A stretch of DNA of 64,000 nucleotides from an uncultured delta proteobacterium (GCA_963745035.1 CAVUVW010000017.1:323501-387500); one strand, 5' to 3'; positions 47,773-64,000 are shown, counted from the first letter of the stretch. Notes: a model not told the origin generated them from the letters alone. Made by a program: numbers and translations.

Positions 47773-47867
47773 GGAGAAGGAAGGTGCCCGGTGGTGCCGC
47801 TGGTCTTCAAAACCAGTCTGGGGGTCGTAAGGTCCCCGGAGGGTTCGACTCCCTCCCTTCTCCGCCA
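47773..47867 (+). tRNA. selC: tRNA-Sec (anticodon UCA)
   Basis: 8-bp acceptor GGAGAAGG/CCTTCTCC, 6-bp D stem, CTGGT-CTTCAAA-ACCAG anticodon arm (TCA at 47807-47809), long variable arm, GAGGG-TTCGACT-CCCTC T arm, GCCA end. Confidence 0.95.
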
Positions 47868-47908
47868 AAGTGATGTGAGATAAAAGCGGAGCAGTCCGCA
47901 ATTCACGA

Positions 47909-50210
47909 TCAAGGCACATTTCCAAGGACGTCAAAACCCAGGCCGCTTGATCCCTCACCGCGGCCGATCTGTTTGCGCCGCCCGATCCATAAATGCGTCG
48001 AGCCGTCGAACCAGCGGGTGTACTGGTAGTTGCGTGTGACACGAACGCCCTCGCGCGGAACTTCTTCCTCGAACAATTCCAGTTGCGCGACCGGGATCAG
48101 GGGTCAAAATACGTCCCATCGCGTGAACCGGCTCCGGCAAGCCGTCCGTTTTGAGGACCGCGCCGCGTTTTAGACGCAGCCCTTCTCCCACTCGCGCGGG
48201 CATCAGCGGAATCCAGTAATCGGGGATTTCCGTGGCAAGACGATAGTGCAGCGGTCCGGCGGCTGACGAGCTGTTTACCGCGGTTTCCGGCGCGCCACGC
48301 CGTTTCTTTTCCAGGTAAGCTTCGAATCGATTGAGCGATCCTTCCGCCGGGCTTTCAATCAAGCGTTCGACCGCCCAGGCCAGATTCGCCATCTCGTCGC
48401 GCAGGAACAGCACTTCTTCGATGGGCCGGCTTTCCAAACTCTTGAGCAGCGACGGCGGCAGGAAAAACAAATTCGCCGCCGGTTTAGTAAAGCCGCTCCC
48501 ACGCATATAGGAATGCTGGAACATGCGCCACGAGGAATGCGGCTCGCCCAACTCGCTTGAGGATTTGATTAGCGTACGCACACCGAACGTGTCGGTGATG
48601 ATTAACGAACGGGTTCGATAGACCGAGCCGATGTCCAATTCGATGGGCATCACAAACCAGTCGTTGCCGTAGTCCAGCGCAAATTCCACTAGCAGCATAC
48701 GCGCCAGATCAGTGGGTCCGGCGTCCACCGAACCGAGATCCACCTGAGCGTCTTCAAATTCCCAGAATCGCGCCGCGGGCATGCCGCGAAAGCTGACCGG
48801 AGCCGGAATCGCCGTGCGGGTAATTTCTGTCGCAGCATTGTCCGTCGCTGCGCCGAGCGTCACTTCAGGATTGGCATCGAAGGCGTACCAGTCCAGATGG
48901 CCATCAAAATATTCCTGCGCCGTCAATATACACTCGCCATCGCTGAGCCGGGTCGCCACGGAAAACGCATACTCCATACGTTCCGGCGACCACGACGGAT
49001 CAGTGGTTTCCGGCTCGCTGAAAGCCGTCTCGAACCATTGCAGCCAAAGCCGCGCGGCCTTCTCGACTTCCGCCAAATCGGCCGAGGCAATTTGCAAATC
49101 GGCGGCGATCACAATTGCGCCGGCGCCGGCCGAGCGGAAGGCGCCATAGAGCCGCCGACCGTCGGGGACACGCGCCGCCATTAAATCAAAAAAACTCAGA
49201 CTCTCACGGTCGAGTGCGGCGCGTTGCTCGATCGTCAATGCCGGAAACGGATATTGGCGAATGAAGGCGTCGCGGTAATCAAGCGACAGCGGCTGCAGTT
49301 CGAGCAAGCGCAAGAATTGCTGGCCGGCTTCCGCGGCCAGTCGAAGTTTTTCCGGCTTCGTCATGGGATCGGTTGCCGAACGAACGGTTTCCCGCTCGAC
49401 CAAGGTTTCCAGCGGCATGCTGTGGTTATAACTTGGCGCATCGACTCTGGTGTTTGGCGTCATCGCGCCCGAATGATAACGGGTCAGCGGCGCCGCTTCC
49501 GCGCGCCAGCGGGCGATCACGGGCGAGCCGTTGTCTCCGCCCTGAAACTCTCCCAGCTGCCATTGCCGCGCCAGCAGCCAGAGCGGATCGTAGATTCTCG
49601 CCTGCAGACTGGTATTCATTTCGGCATCGCGGCTGCGCGGCTCCAGCCGCATCCAGCTGGTGATCGATGGCACGGCTTCTTCACCAACGACAATAGACGA
49701 GGCCCGATCATTCCAATCCATCCTGATAGCCGGAGTGTCCCCCCTAATATCGATGAACGCTCCTTGAAAATTGGCATGCTCATACAGCCTGAGCATCATA
49801 CCCGTAGGGATTAACGCAGAGCTTAAGGTTTCATTGCCAATTGTGATCTGCGCGGTATCGTAGTTCCCTTTTTGCAAGATCTGAGATAGGCCGCCGTAAT
49901 TGGCATGCTCAAAGATCATAACTTCTCTTGTAATGGGCGGCGGTTCAGCTGCGTCATAAACGATAATTGAGCTGGTTCGGTCATTCCAGAACTGACTTAT
50001 GATCGGGGTATCCTCCGCGATATCGATGAAACGCCCCTGGAAGTGATAGTGCTCATACAATCTGGCCACTAGTCCTTGAGGCACCTGGAGGGAGCTAACT
50101 ATATCGTTACCGAAAGACAGCTGATGGGCTGCGTCGTCGTACCGCCCCTTAGGTAGAACCTGAGACTGCCCTTGAAAATTTGCATGCTCGTAGATTGTTA
50201 CGTCGGCCAT
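47909..50210 (-). CDS. Hypothetical protein with two N-terminal beta/gamma-crystallin domains (frameshift near 48090)
   Basis: AAGGAGG RBS before MADVTIYEHANFQG; four Greek-key repeats; body begins WMRLEPR...DPLWLLARQWQLGEF. Probable true C-terminus in the shifted frame: LFEEEVPREGVRV...GRGEGSSGLGFD...VP*. Confidence 0.8.
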
Positions 50211-50334
50211 GGTTAGCCTCCTTTGGTAGACCCGTGATTCGTTTGTTGTAACGCACCAAAGGTGTTGTTCATCGCACCATCGCGCCTGCGCGGCTCCAGC
50301 CCCATCCAACTGGTTATCGATGGCATAATTTCCT

Positions 50335-53300
50335 CTACTTGATTGTCGTAAAATCGGTTGAAACGGTTTCGCCGGCAGTGTTATGCGCAAAGTACAACGC
50401 CGGCAGATAATGCCCGACTTCATCCAGCGCGTCGGGGTCGACGGCACGAATTCGCGCCAGATCGAGCGTTTCCATCAGCACCTGTTGCAGCGACCAGACC
50501 GTCCAAGGCAAATCGACCTGCGGCGGTACGGCGATCAGGATCGTTTGCGGCGGCGCGGCGTTGGGTTGGTCGTACTGAAAAGAAATCCCGCTGGTCTCGG
50601 TGGCGTTGGGCACGACTTCGACCCATTCGTCGATCAGCAGCCCGGCCAGCGGCTGGCGCACATCAACCAGTGCGGCGGATTGCACGGCGAGGGAAAGTTT
50701 TCCGCCTGGCAGGATCTGTCCCGCTTGGAGCGGCAGGCCGACCCAGCGATCGTTGGCGTCGTAGGGAAGCTGCGCAACACTTAATTTAAGTTTTTCGCCG
50801 GTCTTGAGTGCTTCGGAATAATTAAGTGCCGCGTTAAGCCGAGCCGCGCCCTCGCGCACGCGAGCCATGCGGTGCAACCACGTGGTTGCGGCGAACGGAT
50901 CGCCGCCTTGTACTTTGGTGCTGTCGGCCAGCGCTTTTTGCAGCTCATCGGCGTTCGCCGCGGCAAAACGCGACAGCACGACAAACGCCTTGCCGAAGAC
51001 CATGCGCAGCCGCGCCAGTGCGTATTCACCCCGCGCTTCAACCGTCGCCGCGCTGGAATTAAAACCGCTGGCCCGCGCCGTGAGTTGTTCGACACGCTGC
51101 GCCAACTCTTTGAGCACTGAGCCGGCCTGCAGGAGCAGAATTTGGCGGTCGGCTGACGAATCGCCGGCAGCGGAAAGCGGCACCGCGCCAGGTGCGCTGA
51201 AACCAGCCGAACGCAATAGTAGGTCCCGCAAAATTTCCAGGTTAGCCGTCTCAGCCGCGCTTAACTGCTGTTGGAATTCGTTGGTCGCTTCGCGCAAGGA
51301 CTGTTCGGCGCTCTCTGCGCGCTTTTCCAACTCCACCACGTCCACGCCGGAACTCCCGCTTCGTTCCGGCGGGTTCAAATCCTCCGCGTCAATCCCGCGC
51401 GCGTTGGTGATCAACTTGCGCGCCGTGCGCAGCAACTCGTTGAACTCCCCGTATCCCAACTCACTGGCTGCCCATTCCGGTTTGCGCCCGGGATTGATCC
51501 GCAGCAGCGAACCCGGCGCAAAGCCCTCCGGCTCGCGCATGAGCGCATACAAAATGCGTTGCTCGATCTCCGCTTGCTGTCCGGCTTCTCCGCCTTCGAC
51601 CGCGTAGATGAAATCGAGGGGGGCTAGACGGAGTTTGTCGAGGCGGAGTTCCTTGGTCTCCAGAACCTGTCCGGTCGCCCCTTCCAATCGCTCAACCAGG
51701 CAGCGCACGTTGGCCGGATTGCCAAGCAGTTTTGCCGCCCAGGCGTTTAAGTGCGGCTCGGCGTTGGCGCGCACCGATTGTTGCGACAATCCCCACTCGG
51801 GCGGGAGCTGCGGTTCACCGCTGAACAAGGTCACCAGCCGGTGCGTCAGCGCGATGCCGGTGCGCGGCGTGCGCGCGACTTCGAGTTCGGGCGGCGGCGT
51901 TTCACCGCCGGCGATGGATTCCACTGTCATGGCGGCGCGCACCGGGTTGCCGCGCACGACCTGATGCACGGTTTCGGCCATCAGCGCGTCGCTGACGGCG
52001 TCCACCGAATCGGCCAGCGAGTCGAGTTCGGCCTCCAAAGCGGCTTTTGAGTTTATCAGGTCAGGCAGCGGCGGTTTGTTCGTTAGCGGGGCGAAGAGGA
52101 GTGAGAGCGCGCCGGCGCTCCCGGGCGGCGGCGTTACGCGCCGCAGTAGATCCAGCGCCGCCAGCCAGCGCCGTTGCAACTCGAGGCCGTCCACCACGTT
52201 ATTGGCCGCGATGGCTTCGACCGGTTGATCGGTTTGCTCCAGCTTGCGCGCCACCAGCGGCGCCAGCTCGCGGAAAAACGAAATGAACGGCGCTTTTCCG
52301 GCTTCCTGTAGGCGGCGCTCGAACCGGTAACCGAGCAGCGCGCCGAGCGGCTGCCCTTGCCGTACGCCGTCAAGCAGCCAGGCCGCCAAGCGCACCCGCT
52401 CGGACGACAGATCAATCGCCAGCAAATCGTTCGGCATTTGATTGCCGGCGTGGGCCAGATGGCCGCTGCGCAGCACGGCCGCCGTGGTGGCTTGGGTCAG
52501 CGACGGCGCGTGAACGAAACCGGGATTGCTCGCCGACTGAAAAAGCGGGGCTGATTCGCCCGGCGGCGGCGCGACTGTGATTTGAGCGGTCGCGGGTTGC
52601 AGATTCATCACCCAGCCGTAGCCGCCGAACAGGACACCGGCCGGATTTGCTTTGCGAATCTCGGCCAATCGCTTGGTCGCCAACGAAGTGATCCACGCAT
52701 CGAGCCGGTAGGAGCATAGGTCGAGGGTGCCGGTCATCAACTGTTCGAGTCTAGCGGGAGTGAGTGACTTCAGGTGCGCCAGGCTGGCGCGGAATTCGTC
52801 CAGCGCTTTCAGGTCCGGTTCCCGGTCGACGTCGGGTTCGCCGGAGGGCGTGAAGCCGAGCAGATACTTGCCGAGCTCGACGGGCTCCGGAACGCCTGGC
52901 ACCGTGATCTTCGTTGCCATTTGCCGCCAGACGGTTTGCATCAACTGTCCCAGGGGGAGATCCACCAGCTCTGGCTCGCGCCGCTGTCCGGCCTGCAGTA
53001 GCCCCCGGTTGATGAGCAGCCGCGACGCGCCGGCCGCGTATTCTAACAGCAATGAGTGGCGCAACAGCAAGTAAAGCAGTGTAGGCGGCGGCGGTTGCAG
53101 AATGGTTTCGTGACGAATCGCGTCGAGGTCGCGCGCGGCGAGTAGCGCTTCGATGTAGTTCGGGGTCAGCGGCGAAGTTTCCGCCACCTGCCCTGCTTGC
53201 ACCAACGCTCCTGTGAGGTTCGCGACGGGCGGTGCAAACACACCTTGCGCCAGCCGCGGTCGCCAAGTCACACCCAGCGTTTGCAACAACGCCGCAGCGC

Positions 53301-55083
53301 GCTGGTCTTGTATCGCCGACCACGCGGACGTGGAGGCGCGCTTGGCGGCGATCAAAGCGAGCCTTTGCCGGCGCGCCGCCATTACGGCGGCCCATCGCTC
53401 ATGCGCCCGGGCATAGGCAAGCCTTCTCTGCTGCGCAGCCCGGATCCAAGCGATCCTTTCCCTCGGCGTCAAGTCCTCGGGAGGCTCCTCTTCCTCGGGA
53501 GCCTCCGGCTCCGGCGGCGGCTCTTCGACAACGGCCCCCCAAACGTCCAAAAAGATTTCGGCGCTCAAAAACACCCACAAATGTTCCAGGTAGTGGCGAC
53601 CCATCAGGTTGCGCATCGAGTAGTTGGACGACTGTCCATCCATGCTCAAGACCTCGGCCAGATCTTTGTCGATGCCTTTTTCCTGGTCGAAGTCATCGCT
53701 CCGGCCGAGGCGCGGGACTTCCGGAAAATCACGCCGCCACAGGTCGCGTAAACGGATCAGAAAATCCCGCAACGCGACGTCGCGCGCCGATGGATTCGTT
53801 TGATCGGCCGGCGCCTGCCAAGCGTTGAGCGAAGTCACCGGCAGAATGCCATAGGGCTGTCTGCCGATGCGCAAGGCCGGCAGCGGCCCGCTCGCGCGCA
53901 CGTAGTCGATGAAATGGCTGCGCGCCCAAGCGATATCGTCGTCGCTGAGGGGGCTTTCACCGGCTGCGCCGACACCGAGCATCTGCAACAGGAAATAGCC
54001 CCACGTCGCCTGCCACAAGGCCGTGTTCATGTGGCGCCCATCGAGCTGTTCTTTTGCCGTAGCGTTGGGAAGATTGGCAAACACCTGACCGGCGTTCGCC
54101 AGGCCGAAGGCGGTTGCCAGCACATCGGCATTCGAGCCATCGCCAGGTTGAAATGCCGCGGCGCTGCGTTCGGCCAGATAGCTCGCTTCATGGCCGGCGT
54201 CTTTGGAGCTGAATCCGGAAGGCGCATCCGCCGTGTTATTGGAAGGGGTGCCGGGCGGGACAAAGCTTAGCCCGCCGGTGTAGTGGTGCGCGTTGAACAA
54301 TTCCGCCAGATTCGGCGCCCAGTCTGTGGTCCGGTCAAGCGAATCTTTGATGCCCATCACCAGAAGAAAATCCAATCCTGCAGCGGCATCTTCTTTCGTC
54401 AGTCTTGCGCGAATCCCCATGCCGACTGTTTCCGCCACGTCGAAATCCACCATCCACTTCATGCCGGCGTCGATGCCGAGTTGATCGATAGTGGCCGACG
54501 GCGAGGGGTCGGGGCCGGTCGCCAGCGTGTCTGAAATCAATCCTCCTTTGACGTTCACCACCAGCCGGCCGTTCTTGTAACCGAGCACGATCCACTGGTT
54601 CGGCAACACGCGCGCCACCGGTGCGCGCGTCCAGGTCTCGCTATTCGTCGCGGGAGATGGAAAACGCGCGGGTTTCGGGAGCGGCTGATCGGCAGCGATA
54701 GGACTTGCCGGGCGGTCTTCGGGATTGAGCGGTTTGAGCGCGCGGGCGATCCATGCGGCGCGCGGCGGATCGAAGCGATCAGCCAGCTGGCGCCAGGCGG
54801 TTTTTCCGCGTTCTTCGTCGTTCCCGGCGCGCCAAGTCTGTTCCCAGAAATGCTCGCCCCAAGTCACCTCGTCGGCGGTCAGCTCAGGCTCGTGCGTATC
54901 GATGTGTACCGTATCGGGGTAGACGCGCACGCGCAGCTCGGAGCTGCCGTCGGCTTGCGCAAAGAAACGGGTTTCCAACCGCACCGGGAACAGGACAACC
55001 GGCCGGGCGGGACCAAACGATAACTGCACCCCAAGTTCGGGTGCGTTTGGAATGTTGGGAATCTCAGGATTAGGAGTAAGCAT
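50335..55083 (-). CDS. Large hypothetical protein (1582 aa)
   Basis: Uninterrupted 4.7-kb ORF with motifs [54 protein letters not shown]. No function recognised. Confidence 0.85.
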
Positions 55084-55086
55084 GAA

Positions 55087-57964
55087 TCACGTCGGGCCTT
55101 GTTTAATCATTTCTTTCGCGTGAATCGCGATGCGCACCGGTCGCTGCAAGGTGATGTAAGCCTGGTGCGCGGAGTTCTTACCCCACTTCGCCTTGTCAGC
55201 AACGTCCGGCAGCGCTGTTTTGGTCGAGGCATGCGAGAGAGCCGTCAATTCTGCTTCGGTGTTGGCGAGATGCCGCCAGCTTAGATCGTTCCACGTGGCC
55301 AAGGCGGGCAGCGGTTTCGCGAAGTTCGCGACGTCCATCCCGAAGCGCGGCTCGGTCGGCTGCTCCTGGATCACGAAGAACCAGCCGGGCTCGGCGATGG
55401 CTTCTTTATCGGTCAGCGCAAAACCCAAAAACGTGACGTCCGGTTTCAGCGTGCCGCGAAAGAGCGGATGACTTTCCTTAGCCGGGTCGGATGACAGCTC
55501 AAGCTGATCTCCTTCTCGCACCGCCGCCACGGCGTAGATCACCGAGTTCGGGTAGCGTCGCAGCAGCTCACCGCGAATGAGCAGGACCAATTGTTCGCCC
55601 GCGCCGGCATTCTCGCCGAGCTTGCGGTCGCGCCATTGGTTGATCCTGTCGATATCCGGTTGATCACTGCCCGCCGAGGTATCCCAGAACTGGCGAAAAT
55701 ACGTGCCGCGCTGGTCGGTCGGATAGTTCCGCCAGAGCAGTTCACGGCTCATTTCGGCATTGAGTCCGACCAGGAACGCTTCGACGAATTTCGGATTGGT
55801 CTCGAGCAAGGTGACGGTGTTCGCCGGCACCTGCTCTAAACCGGGAAACAAAAATTCCTGCGAGAGGTCGCGTATGGCTTCATACATAGGTTGCGGGAAA
55901 TCGGGCGCATCGAGGATGGGCTCGAGGGGATCGGCACGCGACTCCGTATCGCCGGCGATGACCAGCGAAGCCTGTACACGCGCCTTGATGGTCTTGTCGG
56001 GATTGACGCTTTGCAGCAGCTGCGCTTTGGTGTCGGTCAGATTCATCTGAACCGGCGCCGAGAAGTTTATCGAAGATTTTATCGAAGGCGTAAACGCCTG
56101 CTGCAGGTAAGCTTGGTGCGCCTTCGCCGCATTGCGAAATGCCTGCGCGTCGGCGCTGTCGGCCGGCTGCGCGGACTGGAAGTCCAACAGGCTGCGCTTC
56201 GCTGCGCCCTCGGCCGCAACCGTAAAATCGCCCAGCAGGGGCGTGGCGTCGAGCGCGTTGATGGCATTTTCGAAGCGAACGGTTTGCTTGATTTGCCCCG
56301 CCAACCCCCCGCCCTGATTATCCGAAACCTGGTTGAGCGTCACCAGACCGGCTTCGTTCTTCTGCGGCTGGACAATCAACTTCGTGTTCAACGTGGCCAC
56401 GATGGCGATGGGCGGTGCACTGCCCGTCTTGAAGCGGGTGCTGACCACGCCGCGCGGGCTCGTCAACCGGCGCAACGGCGCGGAGACGGCTCTGGCCGGG
56501 ATCGCCGATTGAGAAATCCTTTGTGACAACAGCATCCGCGTGTTGTTGGCGCCCGTGGATTCGACGACGACACGGGCTTGCGCCGAACCGACGACTTTCA
56601 GCAGTGTCTCTTCGGAAAATCGGCTGAAGTGCCGGGCATAGTAAACGCCATTGACGGCGCGGCCGAACTGGGCCTGACGCTGTATTTGATTGATCCGTTC
56701 GATCTCGCCGAGTTGTTCCCACGCCGAGGCCATCAACGGCTCTTGCTGATCCTGCACCACCGCGGTGCCGAGCGCAGCAATCGCTCGATGGCGCGGATCG
56801 AGATTCAGTTCATCCAGCCAGGTCGCTGACGCAGGCGGGGCGGGAGCCAAGTCCACGGTGTGCCGCGCTGCCTGCCAGCAGCCGTAAATCGGCGGCGCGA
56901 GTAGCGGGTCTGCGCCCTCCTCTGCCGCGGCCCGCGACGGCGCATCGAGGATTTTTTTGAGCTCGCTCTGAAAAATCTTTCGAGCCTCTTCCGGCCATTC
57001 GGAAGCGGTCGCATCCAAGCGGCGCAACGCGCCTTCAAGATCGAGCACGGTGTCCGATGGCAGCGGCGTCGTCGTGTGGAATCCGGGTTGGCTGATGTCC
57101 ATCGGGCGTTTGCCGACTTCCGCCGGCAGTTGGCGCGAATCGCGCGCTTCGAGCAAGCCCACCAGCGCTTCGAAATCACCGCCGGTACCGGTGCGAAACT
57201 CCCATTGAAAATAGACGGGCAACGTTACTTGGGAAGGAGATTCCGCTCCCGTCGTCCAAGCCGGTTTCAACTGGTTTTCGTCCTCGGGCTGAATCGGTAA
57301 ACCGAGGCCGGCTTTAAGTCCAAGCTCAAATGCCGGCACCACACACGCCAAATACTCCGTCAGCGGATCGAGGCGGCGCGGACAGACCAACCGCGACACC
57401 GTCAGCGCGGGCGCGCCGGTCAACGCTTGCTTCAGCGAACCAGCATCGCGCCCGCTGCCCGCAATCTGCGCGTGCGCCCACGCCCACGACTCGGATAAAT
57501 CCGGCAGCTCGCGCTCGGGCCGGGCGGGCGCATTGATTTCGAGCACCGGCAGCGGCAGATTGCGGTCGGTGCGCAAACTGACGCCTTCCTGTTTGCGCAC
57601 AACCACCAAGCACAGCCATGGACGCAGCTTGCCGGCGCCATCCGCCTTCGCCGGCGTGAAGAGCCAAGGAAAGTCGGGGCGATCAAAGTCAATCGCCGGA
57701 AAGTAGTTCGGCTCGAAATCCGTGGCGAGATGGCGCGGTTCCGTGCGCACCACCTGCTGCGGATCGATGCCGGTGACATCGCCGGGGCCGTACAGGCGCA
57801 CTTGCCGATCGACGTCATCGGCGCTGTTGATCGCGCAGCTTGACGGGCACCGAAACGACGCCGGCTTGATTGGCAGTCAAGCCGTCGGGTGTCTGAATGC
57901 CGGACGCAGCTCCCTGCCGCACCCACGGCAGGAACACATAATTTGCGGACGTTGGTTCAGCCAT
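55087..57964 (-). CDS. Large hypothetical protein (~960 aa; frameshift near 57830)
   Basis: Probable start MAEPTSANYVFLPWVRQG at 57964 (GAGGTG RBS); LYGPGDVTGID, EPNYFP, DFPWLFTP, YPTDQRGTYFRQFWD, RGELLRRYP. Confidence 0.82.
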
Positions 57965-57990
57965 GGCCACCTCGCCTATGAGAATTTATT

Positions 57991-58085
57991 GTTCCAATGG
58001 TTCCAAAAGTTCCAACCCCTCCGTCTCCCCGCGACGCGAGATCGTCGCCGGGAAGGATTTAACGAGGGGCTTGAACGATTTGAAC
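57991..58085. repeat. Palindromic intergenic element with 9-nt periodic arms
   Basis: GTTCCA x3 at 9-nt spacing (57991, 58000, 58009); core TCCCC-GCGACG-CGAGAT-CGTCGC-CGGGA; TTGAAC x2 at 9-nt spacing (58071, 58080). Confidence 0.65.
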
Positions 58086-58091
58086 TCACTT

Positions 58092-61000
58092 TTAGTTACC
58101 GCCAACCTCCGACAGCCGCAGGATCTTAAAGCCGCCGGCTTTGCCGTGGTCGTTGCCGTTGCAGTTCTCTCAACCCCTGCGCCGCCTCCGAATAGGACGC
58201 CGGTCTGCCCGCTTCGATGCCCGGCACAGCCTGCACCGTCAGATCCTCCGTCGCCACGATGCTCCAACCTTCTTTGGCAATCCGGTGTTTTCCCACCACC
58301 GAACGGTATTTGGCCTTGCCGCTGCGCCGAATCGCCGCCGCCCCGGCAGCGCCGAAGCGCGCCTGCTTGCCAAATAGTTCTGCGCTCAATCGATACAAAT
58401 GCTCTGGATCGCTGCGGCGCGTTTCCTTGTTCTCTTTGTTCATGATAAGCGTCTCGAATTTTATCGCTTCGACTTCCAGCCAATCGTCGGCGTTCGACGG
58501 TAAAAGCAAACTCCTCCGAGCCGATACTCATCCCCGCAGCCATCGGTTCAAAAGAAGGCCGGGAAAGCTTTTCGTCGTCGCTCATCTCGAAGAACTGCGC
58601 CGGGGCGAAGAATTCTTTGACCGGCTCGGTCGTCTGACTGTGTTCGCCCAGGCTGACACTGCTGATCGTGAAGCGGCGCGCTCCGGCGGGCGCGGCTTGG
58701 CCGAACCGGGAAATATCGATGTCCAATGGCACGATGCTCTGTTTGACCGTCAAGGTGCCGAGCGGGTGGAGCAACACTTCGGTCGCCGCTCTCGGCTTTT
58801 CTCGCAGAGTGACCATGGGACGTTGGCCGGCGGGAAGCTGTCCCACCCAGTTGCCGGGATTGCCCAGCGCTTCTTTGAGTCGCGGCAACACGTCGATGGG
58901 TTCCGGCAGTGGCGGCTTCTCTCCTCCGACCAGCGTCTTGTCGACCCGGATCGAAACGTCCCACCAGAGAATCTCAAACGTCGCTTTGGCTTTGACATGC
59001 AGCGGCCGCGGCCCGGCGAGCGCGCCTTCGACTTTGACTTTGAATAAGTTGCTCGAGCCGCGCTTGAGCTGCACCTGGGCGTAGAACTCGGCGAGAAATT
59101 GAAACGGGTCGAGCTGGATCAACACGTCGAAGCCGATTTCGCCGTGAATGCTGAAGCCGGCCGCGGAAGCGTAGAGCTCGGCGCGGGCGCCGAATTGCAC
59201 GGTGTTGGCCGTGAGCGCGAAGTACGCTTCGCAGCGAATGCGCGGGTTGTCGCCCGAGGAGAGATTGATCGCGATGCGCTCGAGCTTGGGAAAATTGGCC
59301 GGCGGGTTGAACGCCGGATGCAGGCCGCCGATGGCGAGCGCGAAGTTGGGCGAGCCTTCCCATTTCATGCGCATCGCCATGTCGCCCGTCAAAACGAACT
59401 TCTTGAGCAACCGCGAATCGTAGAGCGTGGCGTCGAGCGCGGCCGTGCCTTGATCGAAGTCGATCACGCCGATGGCGTCCATCTGCAAGCGCACCAGATC
59501 GTTTTCCCGTTTGGGCAAAATCGCCACGACCTGGGCGAGAATCAGCAGCCGCAGCCGGGCGCCGAACTCGAGCACGACGGCGAGATCGGCGGTGATCAGC
59601 GCCGGTGTGCCCCAGGCGATCTGCACCATCGGCCCGAACAGATGGTGGCCGTTGGCGGGCGGGAAGACTTTATTCAAGTTGCTGAGGATCTGCGGGGCGT
59701 TGCGGATCGGATCGTGGGGAAACATCACGCTGTCGAGCGTGTGGTTCTTGAGCCCGGCGCGCAGCGCTTCTTCGTCGAAGGTGCGGTTGATCGCCAACAG
59801 CCCGCCGATGCCGGTCAAGCACAAAACCATAGCCCAGTTGGATCGGCGCAAAGCCTTCGGCGGTAATAATGACCATCAACGAGTAGCCCTTGGCGCCTCC
59901 GGGCATCCGCGTGGTCAACAATCCGATCGCTTTGACCGCGATCTTCTCGGCAATCTCGAGTTGCAATATCCCGCTGTATTCTTCTTTCTCGGGATCGAAG
60001 CGCAGGAAGCCGCCGCCCACCACCACCGAGGCGTCGATCGCCAGGCCCAAGCCGATCCGGCGGCTTGAAAGAAATGTCGAGATCCGCCGGACCGAGGTTG
60101 CCGCCGCTGTTCGGGAAAGGTCACTGCCGTCGTGATGCCAATGCGCTCGATTGCCACGCGAACTGGGCCAAGCGACAACCCAACATTTGCTGACACCTCT
60201 GCCAGCAGAGCTGCGTCGCTCGCATGCAGACCCAGGTGGATCGTGGGTACGGTGAGCACGTCGCGGATCGACAGACCGACCGGCAATAGTCGCATCGAGG
60301 CTGCCGGCGCCGCGAAAAGTCAGGCCCCGTTCGTTCGACCATTCCAAACCCAAGTCGAATTTCGCCTGCAGTGCCGTCAGCAGGCAGGATCGCTGCTGCA
60401 GAAAGCCATCGCCGTCACCCGGCGCGATGATGATCGCCGATGACGACACGTTGGCCGAAAGCGCCAGTGATTGCCGCGCCTCGGAAAGCGCGGTGTCGAT
60501 GCTCAGCCTGGCGCCGCCGATTTCGATGCGTGTGCCGTCCGTCGAACCGAAGACGAATCCGGGCTCGTCCTCAAGACTCGCGAGCGTGGCCGATGCGCTG
60601 CCCTTGGCCTCGACGGTGCCCGGGTTGGCGAGCAGCGTCACGCCATGCCGGCCCCAGGCGACCACATCGACGCCGGCCGTGAGATCGGCTGCCAGCTTCC
60701 ACGGGCCGGCGCTGCCTTGCACGGCGATCGTGCCGAAGGGGCTGATGACAAGGCCAAGGTCGCCCTGCTGCGCGGCCGACAGTGAGAGCACCACCCCTGA
60801 TTCCGCCGCCGCGCCGTACAGCGGATCGTCGACGTACACGATCAGCGCGTGGCCCATCAGCGGGACAGCGTCGCCGAGGAAGGTGGCATCGTCCGGGTCG
60901 AAGCCGTAGCGGCAGGAAACGCCAAGCGCACGCAGCAGGCGCTCCAGCCGCGGGAAGAGCTTGTCGGCCATGGCATTCGCATCGGCCACCGTCTGCATCG

Positions 61001-61557
61001 CGTTGCCGTACTCGGCGCGCAGCACGGCCAGCGGGTCTTTCACCAGCGCGGGGAGGCGGTCGAGGTGCCAGCGGTCGAGACGGTAGGTGTCGCGCACCAG
61101 GCGACCGTCCTTCACGACGGGCGCGTTGCCCTGCCCGTTCGTTGGCCGGTTCGAGCAGGGTCAGCAGTGCCGCTGCGGGCCGTGCGGCCGGGACGCGGCT
61201 TTCGAGAAAGGCCATCAGCAGCAGATCGACGAGTTCGCGGCCCAGGCCTTCGAGTGCGGCGAGCGGGCCCTGCTGCTCGAGCTTGCGCAAGGCTTCGAAG
61301 GCATCGGCGGCCGCATCGAGCACGGCGGCGATGCTCTCGAACGACGGCGTCTGCTGCGCGCCCAGTGCCTCGATGCGGTCTTTCAGTTCCGCGATGGCGG
61401 AGAGGGATTGCAGCAGCGCGTTGCTGTTCGCTTCCGGCGGCACGCCGAGTTCGGCCAACAGGCGCGGTAGCAGGCCCGGCTCTTCGACCACGCGGACGAT
61501 CGGTGCAAGTAACACCGAGAGGCCACGCGAGAGCGAATCAAACAGCGATGAGCTCAT
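58092..61557 (-). CDS. DUF6603-like large beta-rich protein, split by several frameshifts
   Basis: Pieces: helical N-terminus, beta-strand-rich middle (GLGLAIDASVVVGGGFL...APIQLGYGF, TGIGGLLAINR), GGLHPAF, YFALTANTVQFG, EFFAPAQFFEMSDDEKLSRPSFE. Family call is from recollection and needs an HMM check. Confidence 0.65.
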
Positions 61558-64000
61558 GACATCGCCCGGGGCACCATTTCCGGGAAGTTGGCGTCATCGG
61601 GGTCGAGGCTCACCACGTAGTCGCTGAGCTCCACCTCACTGTCCTTGTCCTTGCGCCAGCGCACCGTGTGGTGCAGCCGGCGCAGGCTGACGTTGGTGGG
61701 GTGCCAGTCGAAGGTGATCTCGCAGAAGTTGTTGGTGCCGATGACCTTGTTGATCTTGCCGCCGGCGTTGTACATGCGGTACTTGGTGGCCGCGAGGCGC
61801 AGCGCCTCGGCGGCCATCTTGCGCTGGTCGGGCGTGCTGCCCGCGGGCAGCGGCGGAATCGGCGTGGTGTCCACGGGCACGCTCACCTCGGGCGGCGTGA
61901 GGTAGTCGAGCCGGTAGCTGTAGTCCGGCGGGGTCTGCGGATCGATCGCCGTCCCGAAGGACAGGCCCTCGAATGTCGCGAATAGCTCAACGTCCGAAGT
62001 CTGCAGCGTCGGCTGGTCGAGCCTCGCGGTGTAGAGCGGCACAAAGGTGTCGCCTACCACGAGGCCGTGCTGGCCCACGGCCTTCTCCGAGCCCAGCGAC
62101 TTGCTCCAGCCCACGTAGCCCTGCGGCACAATGAGCCCGTCGCGCGTCGTCCTGCGGACCACGAGCCATAAGAACCCGCGCGGCACGAAGTCGTACCCGT
62201 TGCGATGGAATCCGAGTGTGTTGTCGGTCTCCTTGCGGAACGAGCTCGCGACCAACTGCGCGATCACCGCCTTGACCGGCTGGGGCTGCGTGTCCTCGAC
62301 GCGCGTGCTGGCATTGTAGAGCAGCCGCGTCGCGAAGCTGAAATGCACGTCGCCGGAGAGCAGCGCCAGCGCCCCGGTTCGCTTGCCGTCGACCAGCGGC
62401 AGCTTGTCGCTCAGGCTCACCATCAGGCGATCGGAATGGATCGACGGCAGCTCCCACGCCTCGTAGACATCCGGGTGGTGCTGGACGTGGTTGGTGATGA
62501 AGTCGTGCCGGGCGGCGGAGCGGAGCGGCTCCACGGCCGGCGCGTTGGTGGTCATCACCACGATCACGAAGCGGTCGCCGGCCGGCGGCGTGGCGACGAT
62601 CTGCTTTGCGAGTTGGTCGCTGGGCAGCAGCACGCCACCACCCACCCGCCCGGTCGGGAACGAGCGCCACGAGCGCGAGTCGGTGAAGATGACCTGATGC
62701 CCCGGCCCTTCGACCGTGAAGTTGAAGATCAGCGAATCCGGGTCATGGAATACGGCGTTGTCCGGCTGGGTGGCCAGCACGGACTCTTCGTGCACGGCGA
62801 CCAGCTTGCGCAGCGCGGGCGAATTCGTCTCGTAGCGGGCCGCATCGGTGCCGTCGAGCAGGTCGAGCATGGCCTTGCCCGGGCCGGTGCCCTCGAACAC
62901 TTCCGGCACGTTGCCCCAGTGCTGGCACAACGAATAGGCCACCAGCGCGTTCTGCGCCACGCGCAGGCCCAGCGGGCGGCCGTACAGCGACTTGCAGGTG
63001 TCGCGCGTCATGTTCCAGTCGTCGGTGACTTCGTGGTCGTCGAAGATCATGTAGCTCGGGATGTTGGCCAGCATCCGACGCACGTCCTGGAGGTCTTGAC
63101 GGAACAGCCTCAGCTTACCCAGGTGATTCAGCTTGCGCTTGCCCGACTCATCAAGTTCTTCTGGTTGAACCATGTCGCGAAGTTGACCCTTCTTCGCCCG
63201 CTGCAACTGCCAGTGACGCAGCGCGTCCGGGTCGCCGCCCAAGACTACGTTGGTGGCCTTCATAAGATCGCTGAACGTCGGCATGTCGGCGGGCCACAGC
63301 ACGTCGGACCAGACCATGATGTACATGCACAGGTACTCGCCGAGCGAGAGCAACTGCCCGTCGAGATCCTCCGAGGTGAAGCCCGCCGCCTCCAGTGGAT
63401 CGCGGCGCAGGAAGGGCAAGAGCTTGTCCACGTCCGCCTTGCCGCCTGCGTCGTCGTAGGGAATCTGTTCCTTCCAACCGAGCAGCACGTGCGCGGCGTC
63501 GGAGAGCACCATCAGCAGCGAAGCCGCGACATCGTCCGCGTAGATCTGGTCGCCGGTCAGCAGCAACTGGTGCGGGCGCGCGAGCGGATTGGACGCGGCT
63601 TGCGCGATCAGCTTGTCGCCAATCGAAAAACAGTCCCTGCCGTTGCCATGCGGGATGCGGCACGAGCCGCACAGGATGCGCAGGTCATCCAGCGACGCCG
63701 GCGGCAGGCAGAAGCTCGGCAGGCCGAAGGGGACGTAGCAGAAGGCGCCCGGCAGCGTCTGCGTGCCGGTGGCCGTGGGCAGGTCCATGCCCTGCCCGTC
63801 GTCGAAGGCGAATGCGAGGTTGTAGCGGTAGACCACGCCTTCCATGAGGTCGGGCGCGCCGGTGGCGGGCACCGCCGTCACGCACACGATGTGCAGTTGC
63901 GTGCCGACGGCCACCGTGTGCCGATGGCCAGTGGCAAAGGGCACATTGAGCGCATCCAGAACCGTGAGCGTGACGTCGCCGCCGACGCGCATCATCAGCC
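61554..64000 (-). CDS. PhoD-like metallophosphoesterase (5' end probably outside window)
   Basis: CGSCRIPH, RPHQLLLTGDQIYADDV, YMIFDDHEVTDDWN, TDSRSWR, LSGDVH. Its stop overlaps the next ATG. Confidence 0.8.
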   Translation of the reverse strand, partial: LMMRVGGDVTLTVLDALNVPFATGHRHTVAVGTQLHIVCVTAVPATGAPDLMEGVVYRYNLAFAFDDGQGMDLPTATGTQTLPGAFCYVPFGLPSFCLPPASLDDLRILCGSCRIPHGNGRDCFSIGDKLIAQAASNPLARPHQLLLTGDQIYADDVAASLLMVLSDAAHVLLGWKEQIPYDDAGGKADVDKLLPFLRRDPLEAAGFTSEDLDGQLLSLGEYLCMYIMVWSDVLWPADMPTFSDLMKATNVVLGGDPDALRHWQLQRAKKGQLRDMVQPEELDESGKRKLNHLGKLRLFRQDLQDVRRMLANIPSYMIFDDHEVTDDWNMTRDTCKSLYGRPLGLRVAQNALVAYSLCQHWGNVPEVFEGTGPGKAMLDLLDGTDAARYETNSPALRKLVAVHEESVLATQPDNAVFHDPDSLIFNFTVEGPGHQVIFTDSRSWRSFPTGRVGGGVLLPSDQLAKQIVATPPAGDRFVIVVMTTNAPAVEPLRSAARHDFITNHVQHHPDVYEAWELPSIHSDRLMVSLSDKLPLVDGKRTGALALLSGDVHFSFATRLLYNASTRVEDTQPQPVKAVIAQLVASSFRKETDNTLGFHRNGYDFVPRGFLWLVVRRTTRDGLIVPQGYVGWSKSLGSEKAVGQHGLVVGDTFVPLYTARLDQPTLQTSDVELFATFEGLSFGTAIDPQTPPDYSYRLDYLTPPEVSVPVDTTPIPPLPAGSTPDQRKMAAEALRLAATKYRMYNAGGKINKVIGTNNFCEITFDWHPTNVSLRRLHHTVRWRKDKDSEVELSDYVVSLDPDDANFPEMVPRAMS

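Follow-up and report, generated by a model that had tools for sequence, protein, structure and literature searches.

What do five large genes, packed head to tail at the very end of a bacterial contig, make together? We addressed this question for a 64,000-nucleotide stretch of DNA from an uncultured delta proteobacterium (GCA_963745035.1, CAVUVW010000017.1:323501-387500; hereafter the window, meaning the whole stretch), whose end is the end of its contig (C17) in a bin of 7.4 Mb and 28 contigs that is 92.6% complete and 5.8% contaminated. The analysis covered window positions 47909-64000 on the minus strand, where open reading frame (ORF) calls place five tightly packed, co-oriented genes that we name A to E in their reading order. 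Gene A encodes a PhoD-like metallophosphoesterase and gene B a DUF6603 protein, followed by the family-less proteins C and D and by E, which carries a crystallin head on a family-less body. Comparison with related loci revealed that B, C, D and E form a conserved core behind an exchangeable enzyme gene, and we tentatively read the cassette as encoding a complex that delivers an exchangeable enzyme, be it a toxin or an exo-enzyme, and acts outside the producer cell.

The initial annotation of the window had described these five genes as co-oriented with overlapping or near-zero junctions, and the ORF calls agree: the stop of A and the start of B overlap by 4 bases (61554/61557), C and D are spaced by 3 bases (55087/55083), and D and E are separated by a gap of 124 bases with AAAGGAGG immediately upstream of the ATG of E. 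It had further stated that a four-gene order recurs in unrelated bacteria as hypothetical proteins. This statement was borne out by a survey of homolog neighbourhoods in one genome per species, which yielded 68 loci (numbered L below) that were counted only where they had enough flank. E followed D in all 54 such loci, C preceded D in 56 of 57 and B preceded C in 44 of 47, so that the genes are co-localised in other genomes and the full B-C-D-E order was found in 40 of 42 loci, far beyond chance. Three loci failed at least one of these order tests, namely L045, where B was not found, L047, where B lies behind E, and L062, an expanded locus. In L047, a metagenome-assembled genome of the Chthoniobacterales, C-D-E is followed by a short S8 subtilase and then B, the relocated enzyme-B pair being still together. 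Taken as a whole, the genes are supported as one conserved, translationally coupled unit.

This unit is widespread. Its hosts include Acidobacteriota, Chloroflexota, Verrucomicrobiota, Nitrospirota, Alpha-, Beta- and Gammaproteobacteria, Bacteroidota and Ca. Nitrosotalea, with related loci across at least seven bacterial phyla, on haloarchaeal plasmids and in the Nitrosotalea archaeon. D-like genes were located on 13 plasmids, from Streptomyces (5), four haloarchaea, Gemmatirosa, Rhizobium, Paraburkholderia and Nocardia, and all five plasmids that were opened carried B-C-D-E in order. Relatives of D numbered at least 1830 (E<=0.001, 8000 scored), with identities of 64-93% in the best 120, and a library of 1.84 billion proteins held 5671 representative clusters of E (50% identity, E<=0.001), 2409 of them at <=1e-30. 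The tree of D splits into two clades, a long form (10 rows, mostly Bacteroidota, with D of 1850-2100 amino acids) and a short form of 30 rows that includes the window. In the ammonia-oxidising archaeon Candidatus Nitrosotalea sp. FS (L050), we observed a slot-1 gene (slot 1 being the position before B), B, a C with a hydrophobic hairpin and the start of D; the slot-1 protein (923 amino acids) gave zero Pfam and zero PDB sequence matches.

The gene in slot 1 is the variable part of the cassette. It was co-oriented with B in 35 of 36 loci and overlapped it by 4 bases in 13 of the 36, and the 35 slot-1 proteins fell into 16 sequence groups. By Pfam, these comprise PhoD-like enzymes (14 of 35, besides the window, a Salinigranum plasmid and a 1514-amino-acid Streptomyces form that adds PG_binding_1), PLD (L009, L018, L037, L057 and L054), trypsin-like proteases with NAL1_N (L007, L041 and L052), S8 subtilases (L055 and L047), Kelch/galactose-oxidase-like proteins (L067 and L068), Het-C (L039) and a weak match to M64 (L061), together with proteins from several loci that match no Pfam family. 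Of 45 loci with sufficient flank, 20 had a PhoD-like A in a tblastn search. A helical C-terminal domain of ~140 residues is common to the trypsin-like and S8 classes, and a hidden Markov model of it did not find the domain in the PhoD, PLD or Kelch classes. Most slot-1 families are better known as secreted enzymes or toxins. Het-C is outlined in PMC3482391 as a domain with a toxin role in polymorphic-toxin and PVC systems. The initial annotation was thus right about a conserved unit with an enzymatic component, and mistaken in taking the PhoD-like enzyme as a fixed part of it, the conserved core being B-C-D-E.

The variability extends into B itself. Between cassettes whose remaining ~650 residues of B are 75-95% identical, the first 450-500 residues share 18-35% identity, which places a switch point inside B at residue 450-500. 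L004 and L044, for instance, are 61% identical in the enzyme, 59% in the N-part of B, 54% in its C-part and 41% in C, and the corresponding values for L004 and L003 are 28%, 33%, 79% and 70%. This recombination breakpoint was further assessed in 22 locus pairs with near-identical B C-parts (above 1.3 bits per residue): the N-parts were unrelated in 12 of 12 pairs with enzymes of different class (0.09-0.23 bits per residue) and related in 8 of the 10 pairs with enzymes of the same class (0.29-1.24 bits per residue). The N-part of B travels with the enzyme gene. This pattern suggests that it could be the cognate adaptor or lock of the enzyme, with C-D-E as a shared body. Tandem arrangements of enzyme and B were also found. 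A second cassette in the window's own genome (contig C16, ~198900-219900; L082, L079 and L080) reads possible M64-like gene, B', PLD, B, C, D, E, with dozens of frame changes in the assembly and an E that lacks the crystallin head. An intact cassette of a genus-mate (G432) has the same tandem enzyme-B layout, and in L009 and L057 a B fragment upstream of the PLD gene is consistent with it.

The individual proteins offered few links to described families. The Pfam PhoD (PF09423) match of A is weak and local (29.5 bits against a cut-off of 27, at residues 297-335, that is 39 residues), spanning only profile positions 72-109 of 343, and the Salinigranum homologue of A scores 40.5 bits. The active site of metallophosphoesterases is marked by the motifs SC, GDxxY, DDHE and GDxH; GSCR, GDQIYADD, DDHE and GDVH are conserved in all 15 A-type proteins, which are only 26-58% identical to the window's A and yet retain these motifs. 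Since neither the A sequence nor a 13-member profile retrieved any solved PhoD structure in searches against PDB sequences, A is best read as a putative distant metallophosphoesterase of the PhoD type. Its alignment begins at residue 36 of the intact L004 homologue and at residue 132 of that from L044, and about 35-130 N-terminal residues are therefore lost at the contig end. Within A, contigs of two sequencing runs lose one base and gain another at a distance of 3 bases (62382-62385), a compensating pair that alters one or two codons relative to the window. All mapped runs also have a depth spike at 62936-63472 (122.7 in run X1), with many loose ends at 63010-63051, the DDHE stretch of A; the most likely cause is that further PhoD-like genes of the metagenomes cross-map there.

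B is a clear member of Pfam DUF6603 (PF20248), a family with no assigned function, at 361.5 bits for the 57986-59851 piece and 61.4 bits for the 59670-61115 piece (gathering cut-off 27), and its plasmid homologues are annotated DUF6603 in RefSeq. The model spans the conserved C-terminal core of B only; against the PDB, nothing beyond weak similarity to designed helical bundles (E 0.005) was seen for the first ~250 residues. C is 66% identical to its L004 counterpart over residues 43-967 and matched nothing in Pfam, NCBIfam, PADLOC, PHROGs or PDB sequences. D gave no Pfam match consistent across 23 members, no PDB sequence match and, in the ESM Atlas, 'hypothetical protein' clusters only, where the E homologue P0122 likewise gave no usable match. 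For C, D and the E body there were zero Pfam matches, for any ORF piece of the window zero matches in NCBIfam, PADLOC and PHROGs, and PDB sequence or profile searches with A, B, C, D, E and two family-less slot-1 proteins returned nothing significant. A common domain behind the similar-looking N-terminal motifs of C, D and E was considered and dropped, as hhalign all-versus-all comparison found none shared.

The crystallin head of E exemplifies the binding-type modules that decorate this core. It matches Pfam Crystall (PF00030; 65.3 bits) in two stretches within the first ~175 residues and comprises two beta/gamma-crystallin domains with four Greek-key motifs, in which NDIVSS, NDRTSS, NETLSS and NDRASS (residues 35, 76, 126 and 167) follow the pattern N/D-N/D-x-x-S/T-S that we take to be calcium-binding. 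The usual length of E is 560-640 amino acids, and the head is one of several extensions: crystallin occurred in 4 of the best 120 E matches. Among 29 long E forms (28 chosen by length from the best 150 representatives, plus P0121, an intact 766-residue relative 98% identical to the window's E), TIG and collagen repeats were identified three times each and PA14, lamin-tail, WD40, P_proprotein and crystallin once each. Ig-like domains were found in 1 of 23 C proteins, and the RefSeq names point the same way, with a Streptomyces C named 'VCBS repeat-containing' and a Salinigranum D and E named 'BGTF surface domain-containing' and 'lamin tail domain-containing'. The insertions in C and D sit in poorly conserved middle regions. 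Together with the slot-1 enzymes, these add-on domains support the initial suggestion of an enzymatic component combined with variable binding-type modules.

The distribution of the cassette is patchy. Of 401 genomes sampled from the window's phylum, only the window's own had DUF6603, as did 0 of 14 control genomes, and 2 of 31 genomes of the window's genus had D. A FastTree phylogeny of 40 D proteins groups the window's D with 11 from Acidobacteriota and 2 from Chloroflexota in a clade of 14 that has full support. The G+C content is 0.66-0.67 over A and B and 0.55-0.64 elsewhere in the window. The cassette is horizontally mobile and self-contained. Among 124 flanking ORFs from 30 loci we found no conserved neighbour gene, each Pfam family occurring at most three times.

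From these patterns we infer the physical assembly of the products, their site of action and their target. Our preference for a delivery complex, tentative as it is, follows from the add-on domains, the kinds of enzyme and the lack of an NTPase or known defence module. A large multi-protein particle would carry a swappable hydrolytic enzyme and act outside its producer. The variable N-terminal 450-500 residues of B would dock the cognate enzyme, in the window the PhoD-like phosphoesterase, and the conserved C-part of B would unite with C, D and E as a shared scaffold. The target surface would be bound by add-on domains on E, C or D, a role that would fall to the crystallin pair on E in the window, and since signal peptides are lacking, release would occur by lysis or some other route.

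Several observations weigh against such a complex. Sequence reading and a hydropathy scan covering 17-21 homologues per gene, Streptomyces and haloarchaeal versions included, revealed a signal peptide in none of the five proteins, which upholds what the initial annotation had said of the visible N-termini. No conserved secretion, lysis or immunity gene lies nearby (124 ORFs, 30 loci), the enzyme gene usually abuts or overlaps B and leaves no room for an immunity gene, and a few loci have MADS or type I restriction genes as neighbours. Of 23 C proteins, 8, all of the long form, have a pair of neighbouring helices in the central variable region that are strongly hydrophobic (19-residue Kyte-Doolittle mean 2.6-3.2) and flanked by K/R on either side, a hairpin found in 0 of 15 short C proteins. 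Some enzymes bear membrane anchors: the Kelch class has a helix at its C-terminus, and one PLD protein and one PhoD-like protein have hairpins. A complex tethered to the producer membrane would account for the hairpin and the anchors no less well than a device for toxin insertion. Pore-forming colicins keep a buried hairpin for membrane insertion, and by analogy the C hairpin could equally be one for insertion into a target membrane, so that it does not decide between the readings. The match between B and the enzyme class is not one-to-one either, as the B N-parts that go with the trypsin-like, S8 and Kelch enzymes are related to one another (0.31-0.53 bits per residue), and the all-pairs statistic is weak (Mann-Whitney p 0.047, with kin that are not independent).

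Known machines provide instructive comparisons. Toxin complexes (Tc or ABC toxins) of Photorhabdus, Yersinia and relatives resemble the cassette in combining several very large signal-peptide-free proteins with an exchangeable enzymatic payload, in placing receptor-binding-type domains on a conserved scaffold, in their horizontal spread and in allowing several payload modules. Their payload, however, is a C-terminal region enclosed in an RHS cocoon, whereas that of the cassette is encoded by a separate gene before the carrier. The Pfam families typical of Tc toxins are VRP1, the TcdB mid domains and RHS repeats; at the sequence level, no Tc or RHS family was detected in the five proteins and none consistently in 23 D and 23 C homologues. 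Extracellular contractile injection systems (eCIS) and type VI secretion systems (T6SS) are particles encoded by several genes; they lack signal peptides, vary in their effectors and carry fibre-like binding modules, and the cassette, as a putative particle, is alike in these features. It differs in having four core genes only; no sheath, tube, spike, baseplate or AAA ATPase was found in its proteins by Pfam, NCBIfam or PHROGs, and no contractile-system genes appeared among the 25 commonest families of the 124 neighbouring ORFs.

Polymorphic toxins, as sketched by Zhang et al. (2012; PMC3482391), consist of a trafficking protein whose C-terminus is a variable toxin, with an immunity gene after it. 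On that description they share with the cassette the swapping of enzyme modules, a breakpoint within the carrier gene, Het-C and tandem spare modules (PMC3482391). The cassette enzyme, by contrast, is not the C-terminal tip of a carrier, being encoded by a separate upstream gene that overlaps or abuts B; there is no small ORF between enzyme and B that could be an immunity gene, and no trafficking domain was identified by Pfam or NCBIfam. On present sequence comparisons, the core proteins are without detectable relation to Tc toxins, contractile injection systems, known polymorphic toxins or PADLOC systems, in line with the initial annotation, which had presented the genes as a candidate undescribed system: Pfam, NCBIfam, PADLOC, PHROGs and PDB sequence searches came back empty for the core. 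A distant structural kinship to a known machine is possible. In the literature searched, which extended to the papers without their supplementary files, we found no paper naming DUF6603 or PF20248 and none describing the cassette.

The strongest rival explanation, which we consider rather unlikely, is that the cassette constitutes an intracellular conflict system acting against phage or by abortive infection, with B-C-D-E as a sensor and scaffold that is membrane-tethered in the long form and a trigger that frees or activates the hydrolase on the producer's own membrane, nucleic acids or proteins. Such systems are known to pair a conserved core with alternative effectors, as in CBASS, Lamassu and Avs, and swappable PLD, protease and phosphoesterase effectors are typical of them. 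The cassette resembles them in its exchangeable PLD, protease and phosphoesterase genes and in its patchy, island-borne distribution. The case for this explanation rests on the lack of export signals and of lysis or immunity genes, on the membrane hairpins with their K/R flanks in 8 of 23 C proteins, and on island-like contexts: copies lie on plasmids, integrases, AbiE, NB-ARC, MADS and type I restriction-modification genes stand beside some loci, and the transfer-like spread (1/401 phylum genomes for DUF6603, 2/31 genus genomes for D) has its counterpart in the position of the window's D inside an Acidobacteriota/Chloroflexota clade. The defence neighbours are few, however, with at most 3 of 124 ORFs per PADLOC model (MADS genes, 3 ORFs each; type I restriction-modification, 2). 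The initial annotation had named a defence system among its examples, but a PADLOC run gave no match for any cassette protein (PADLOC-DB 2.0; 0 families for all seven ORF pieces), and neither Pfam and NCBIfam searches of the window's proteins nor searches of 23 D and 23 C homologues brought up an NTPase, a nuclease or another of the usual sensor modules. Anti-phage systems further differ from the cassette in their NTPase or cyclase; no Walker-type GxxxxGK[ST] was noticed in the family consensus lines, of which no formal search was made. The add-on domains (collagen, PA14, TIG, lamin-tail, crystallin, VCBS, BGTF surface and PG_binding_1) are of the extracellular binding kind, and Kelch/galactose-oxidase-like and PG-binding slot-1 proteins would be odd as suicide effectors.

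A non-toxic scaffold at the cell surface or outside the cell, cellulosome-like in spirit, that displays phosphatase, lipase and proteases for nutrient scavenging or envelope maintenance is improbable. PhoD enzymes are classic phosphate-scavenging exo-enzymes, and the commonest slot-1 enzyme is PhoD-like, its carriers are mostly free-living soil, marine and hypersaline organisms, and the binding-type add-ons, PG_binding_1 and the lack of immunity genes would all suit such a display; export signals, however, are missing here as well, a sporadic, transfer-driven spread with rapid module swapping is more typical of conflict systems than of nutrition, and Het-C is a toxin-type domain.

Another question concerns this copy only and is no alternative to the three readings above, namely whether its frame changes are real. 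Compared with intact homologues, B has at least four frame changes (mapped against the L004 B), C one and E one. Contigs of three DNA runs from three studies (X1, X5 and X6) were aligned to the region, and these independent contigs are one base short at 48086 (X5), 58498 (X1, X6), 59817 (X1) and 60287 (X6), with a further cluster of differences at 60373-60397 (X1, X6); the one-base sites and the cluster coincide with frame-change sites. The picture is not uniform, as the X5 and X6 contigs span 59817 without the one-base difference, and the contig differences listed do not include the site in C near 57832. A, D, rpoB (a 1375-amino-acid open frame) and GlgE are unbroken in the same assembly. The frame changes in B, C and E are therefore quite probably assembly consensus errors and not decay, and may have been aggravated by the second similar cassette in the same bin. 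That the window holds a decaying pseudogene cluster with nothing functional encoded is very improbable: the number of breaks in B, C and E, the far more frequently broken cassette on C16 and the two contigs without a difference at 59817 speak for it, but independent short-read contigs lack one base exactly at four of the sites, an intact E is known at 98% identity, D and A are intact over 7 kb as are rpoB and GlgE, and the cassette of the genus-mate is unbroken.

Turning back to the delivery complex, it is possible, if doubtful, that B-C-D-E represents an unrecognised machine of bacteria and archaea, with no sequence kinship to Tc toxins, contractile injection systems or any secretion system, and a new class of toxin or enzyme delivery particle. 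In such a machine, interchangeable hydrolases would be loaded via a cognate adaptor domain on the DUF6603 protein, and targets would be chosen by grafted lectin-, collagen- or crystallin-type modules. The size of the E family ranks the cassette among the larger ones still wholly uncharacterised, three of its four core proteins having no family, solved relative or literature. Acidobacteriota, Verrucomicrobiota and nitrifiers of soil and rhizosphere carry it in abundance, as do marine Bacteroidota, Streptomyces and haloarchaea. Several of its traits are hallmarks of conflict machinery: the enzyme is swappable and a putative adaptor co-varies with it, binding domains are grafted on, and more than one domain of life has the cassette. 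Be it a delivery particle or a defence system, either would, if true, be a new kind of system, and also a modular scaffold for enzyme loading. Cultured carriers exist, among them Flavobacterium sp. xlx-214, Spongiimicrobium sp. 2-473A-2-J, Streptomyces longwoodensis NBC_00651, Salinigranum marinum ZS-10 and Rhizobium lusitanum 629, and the question is open to direct test.

The features of the region are collected in the table below, which includes the five sequence motifs quoted in the initial annotation, all located in the genes to which they had been assigned.

Table. Positions of the cassette genes, their motifs and adjoining features in the window
Feature	Position	Strand	Description
Gene A	61554-64000	-	>813 amino acids, open at contig end; slot 1, PhoD-like metallophosphoesterase
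Gene B	58126-61557	-	~1143 codons, at least 4 frames; DUF6603 protein
Gene C	55087-57964	-	~958 codons, one frame change near 57832; family-less
YVFLPWVRQG	57940	-	Gene C, N-terminus
EPNYFP	57714	-	Gene C
YPTDQRGTYFRQFWD	55725	-	Gene C
Gene D	50335-55083	-	1582 amino acids, intact; family-less; PVRLETRF motif
PVRLETRF	54987	-	Gene D
Gene E	47909-50210	-	766 codons, one frame change near 48086-48094; crystallin head and family-less body
Crystallin domains	~50210-49686	-	Gene E, head
DPLWLLARQWQ	49589	-	Gene E, body
Terminator-like hairpin and T-run	47886-47899	-	10 bases past E stop; consensus scan
tRNA-Sec gene	47773-47867	+	ARAGORN; Rfam RF01852, 76.7 bits; abuts cassette 3' end

The hairpin behind E is the likely end of the operon, as judged by a pattern match of which the region holds 5 against 3.7 expected. 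selC is a classic site of island integration, and the tRNA-Sec gene at the edge of the cassette is a possible integration site. The other border of such an island would fall beyond the contig end. A tRNA-Val gene lies ~140 bases past E in L004, and most of the 60 loci scanned had no nearby tRNA.

The other genes of the window are ordinary chromosomal ones (GlgE pathway, GH57, sensor kinases and a sigma-54 activator). An alpha-glucan cluster at 1448-26738 comprises a GH57 protein with DUF3536, a TreS-like alpha-amylase, a GlgE maltosyltransferase and an isoamylase/branching-type enzyme, and between these genes lie PAS/Cache sensor kinases and the sigma-54 activator. Relatives of the window's GlgE at 61-76% were found in 10 of 12 same-genus genomes (9 of 11 without the unpublished G405), and the closest named relatives are Candidatus Binatia; the contig therefore fits its bin, and the idea that the cassette came from a contaminant was rejected. 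The host is probably a soil or rhizosphere bacterium of the Binatia.

A human-faecal record (MT835531.1, L076; 'UNVERIFIED: Bacteriophage sp.', 40 kb, unannotated) carries the end of B together with C, D and E; it was the single phage-collection match that prompted the thought of a phage origin. Near-identical pieces of the cassette are present in rhizosphere and soil DNA runs, and three RNA contigs from one rhizosphere metatranscriptome align to C and D with 2 mismatches, a weak hint of transcription with DNA carry-over possible.

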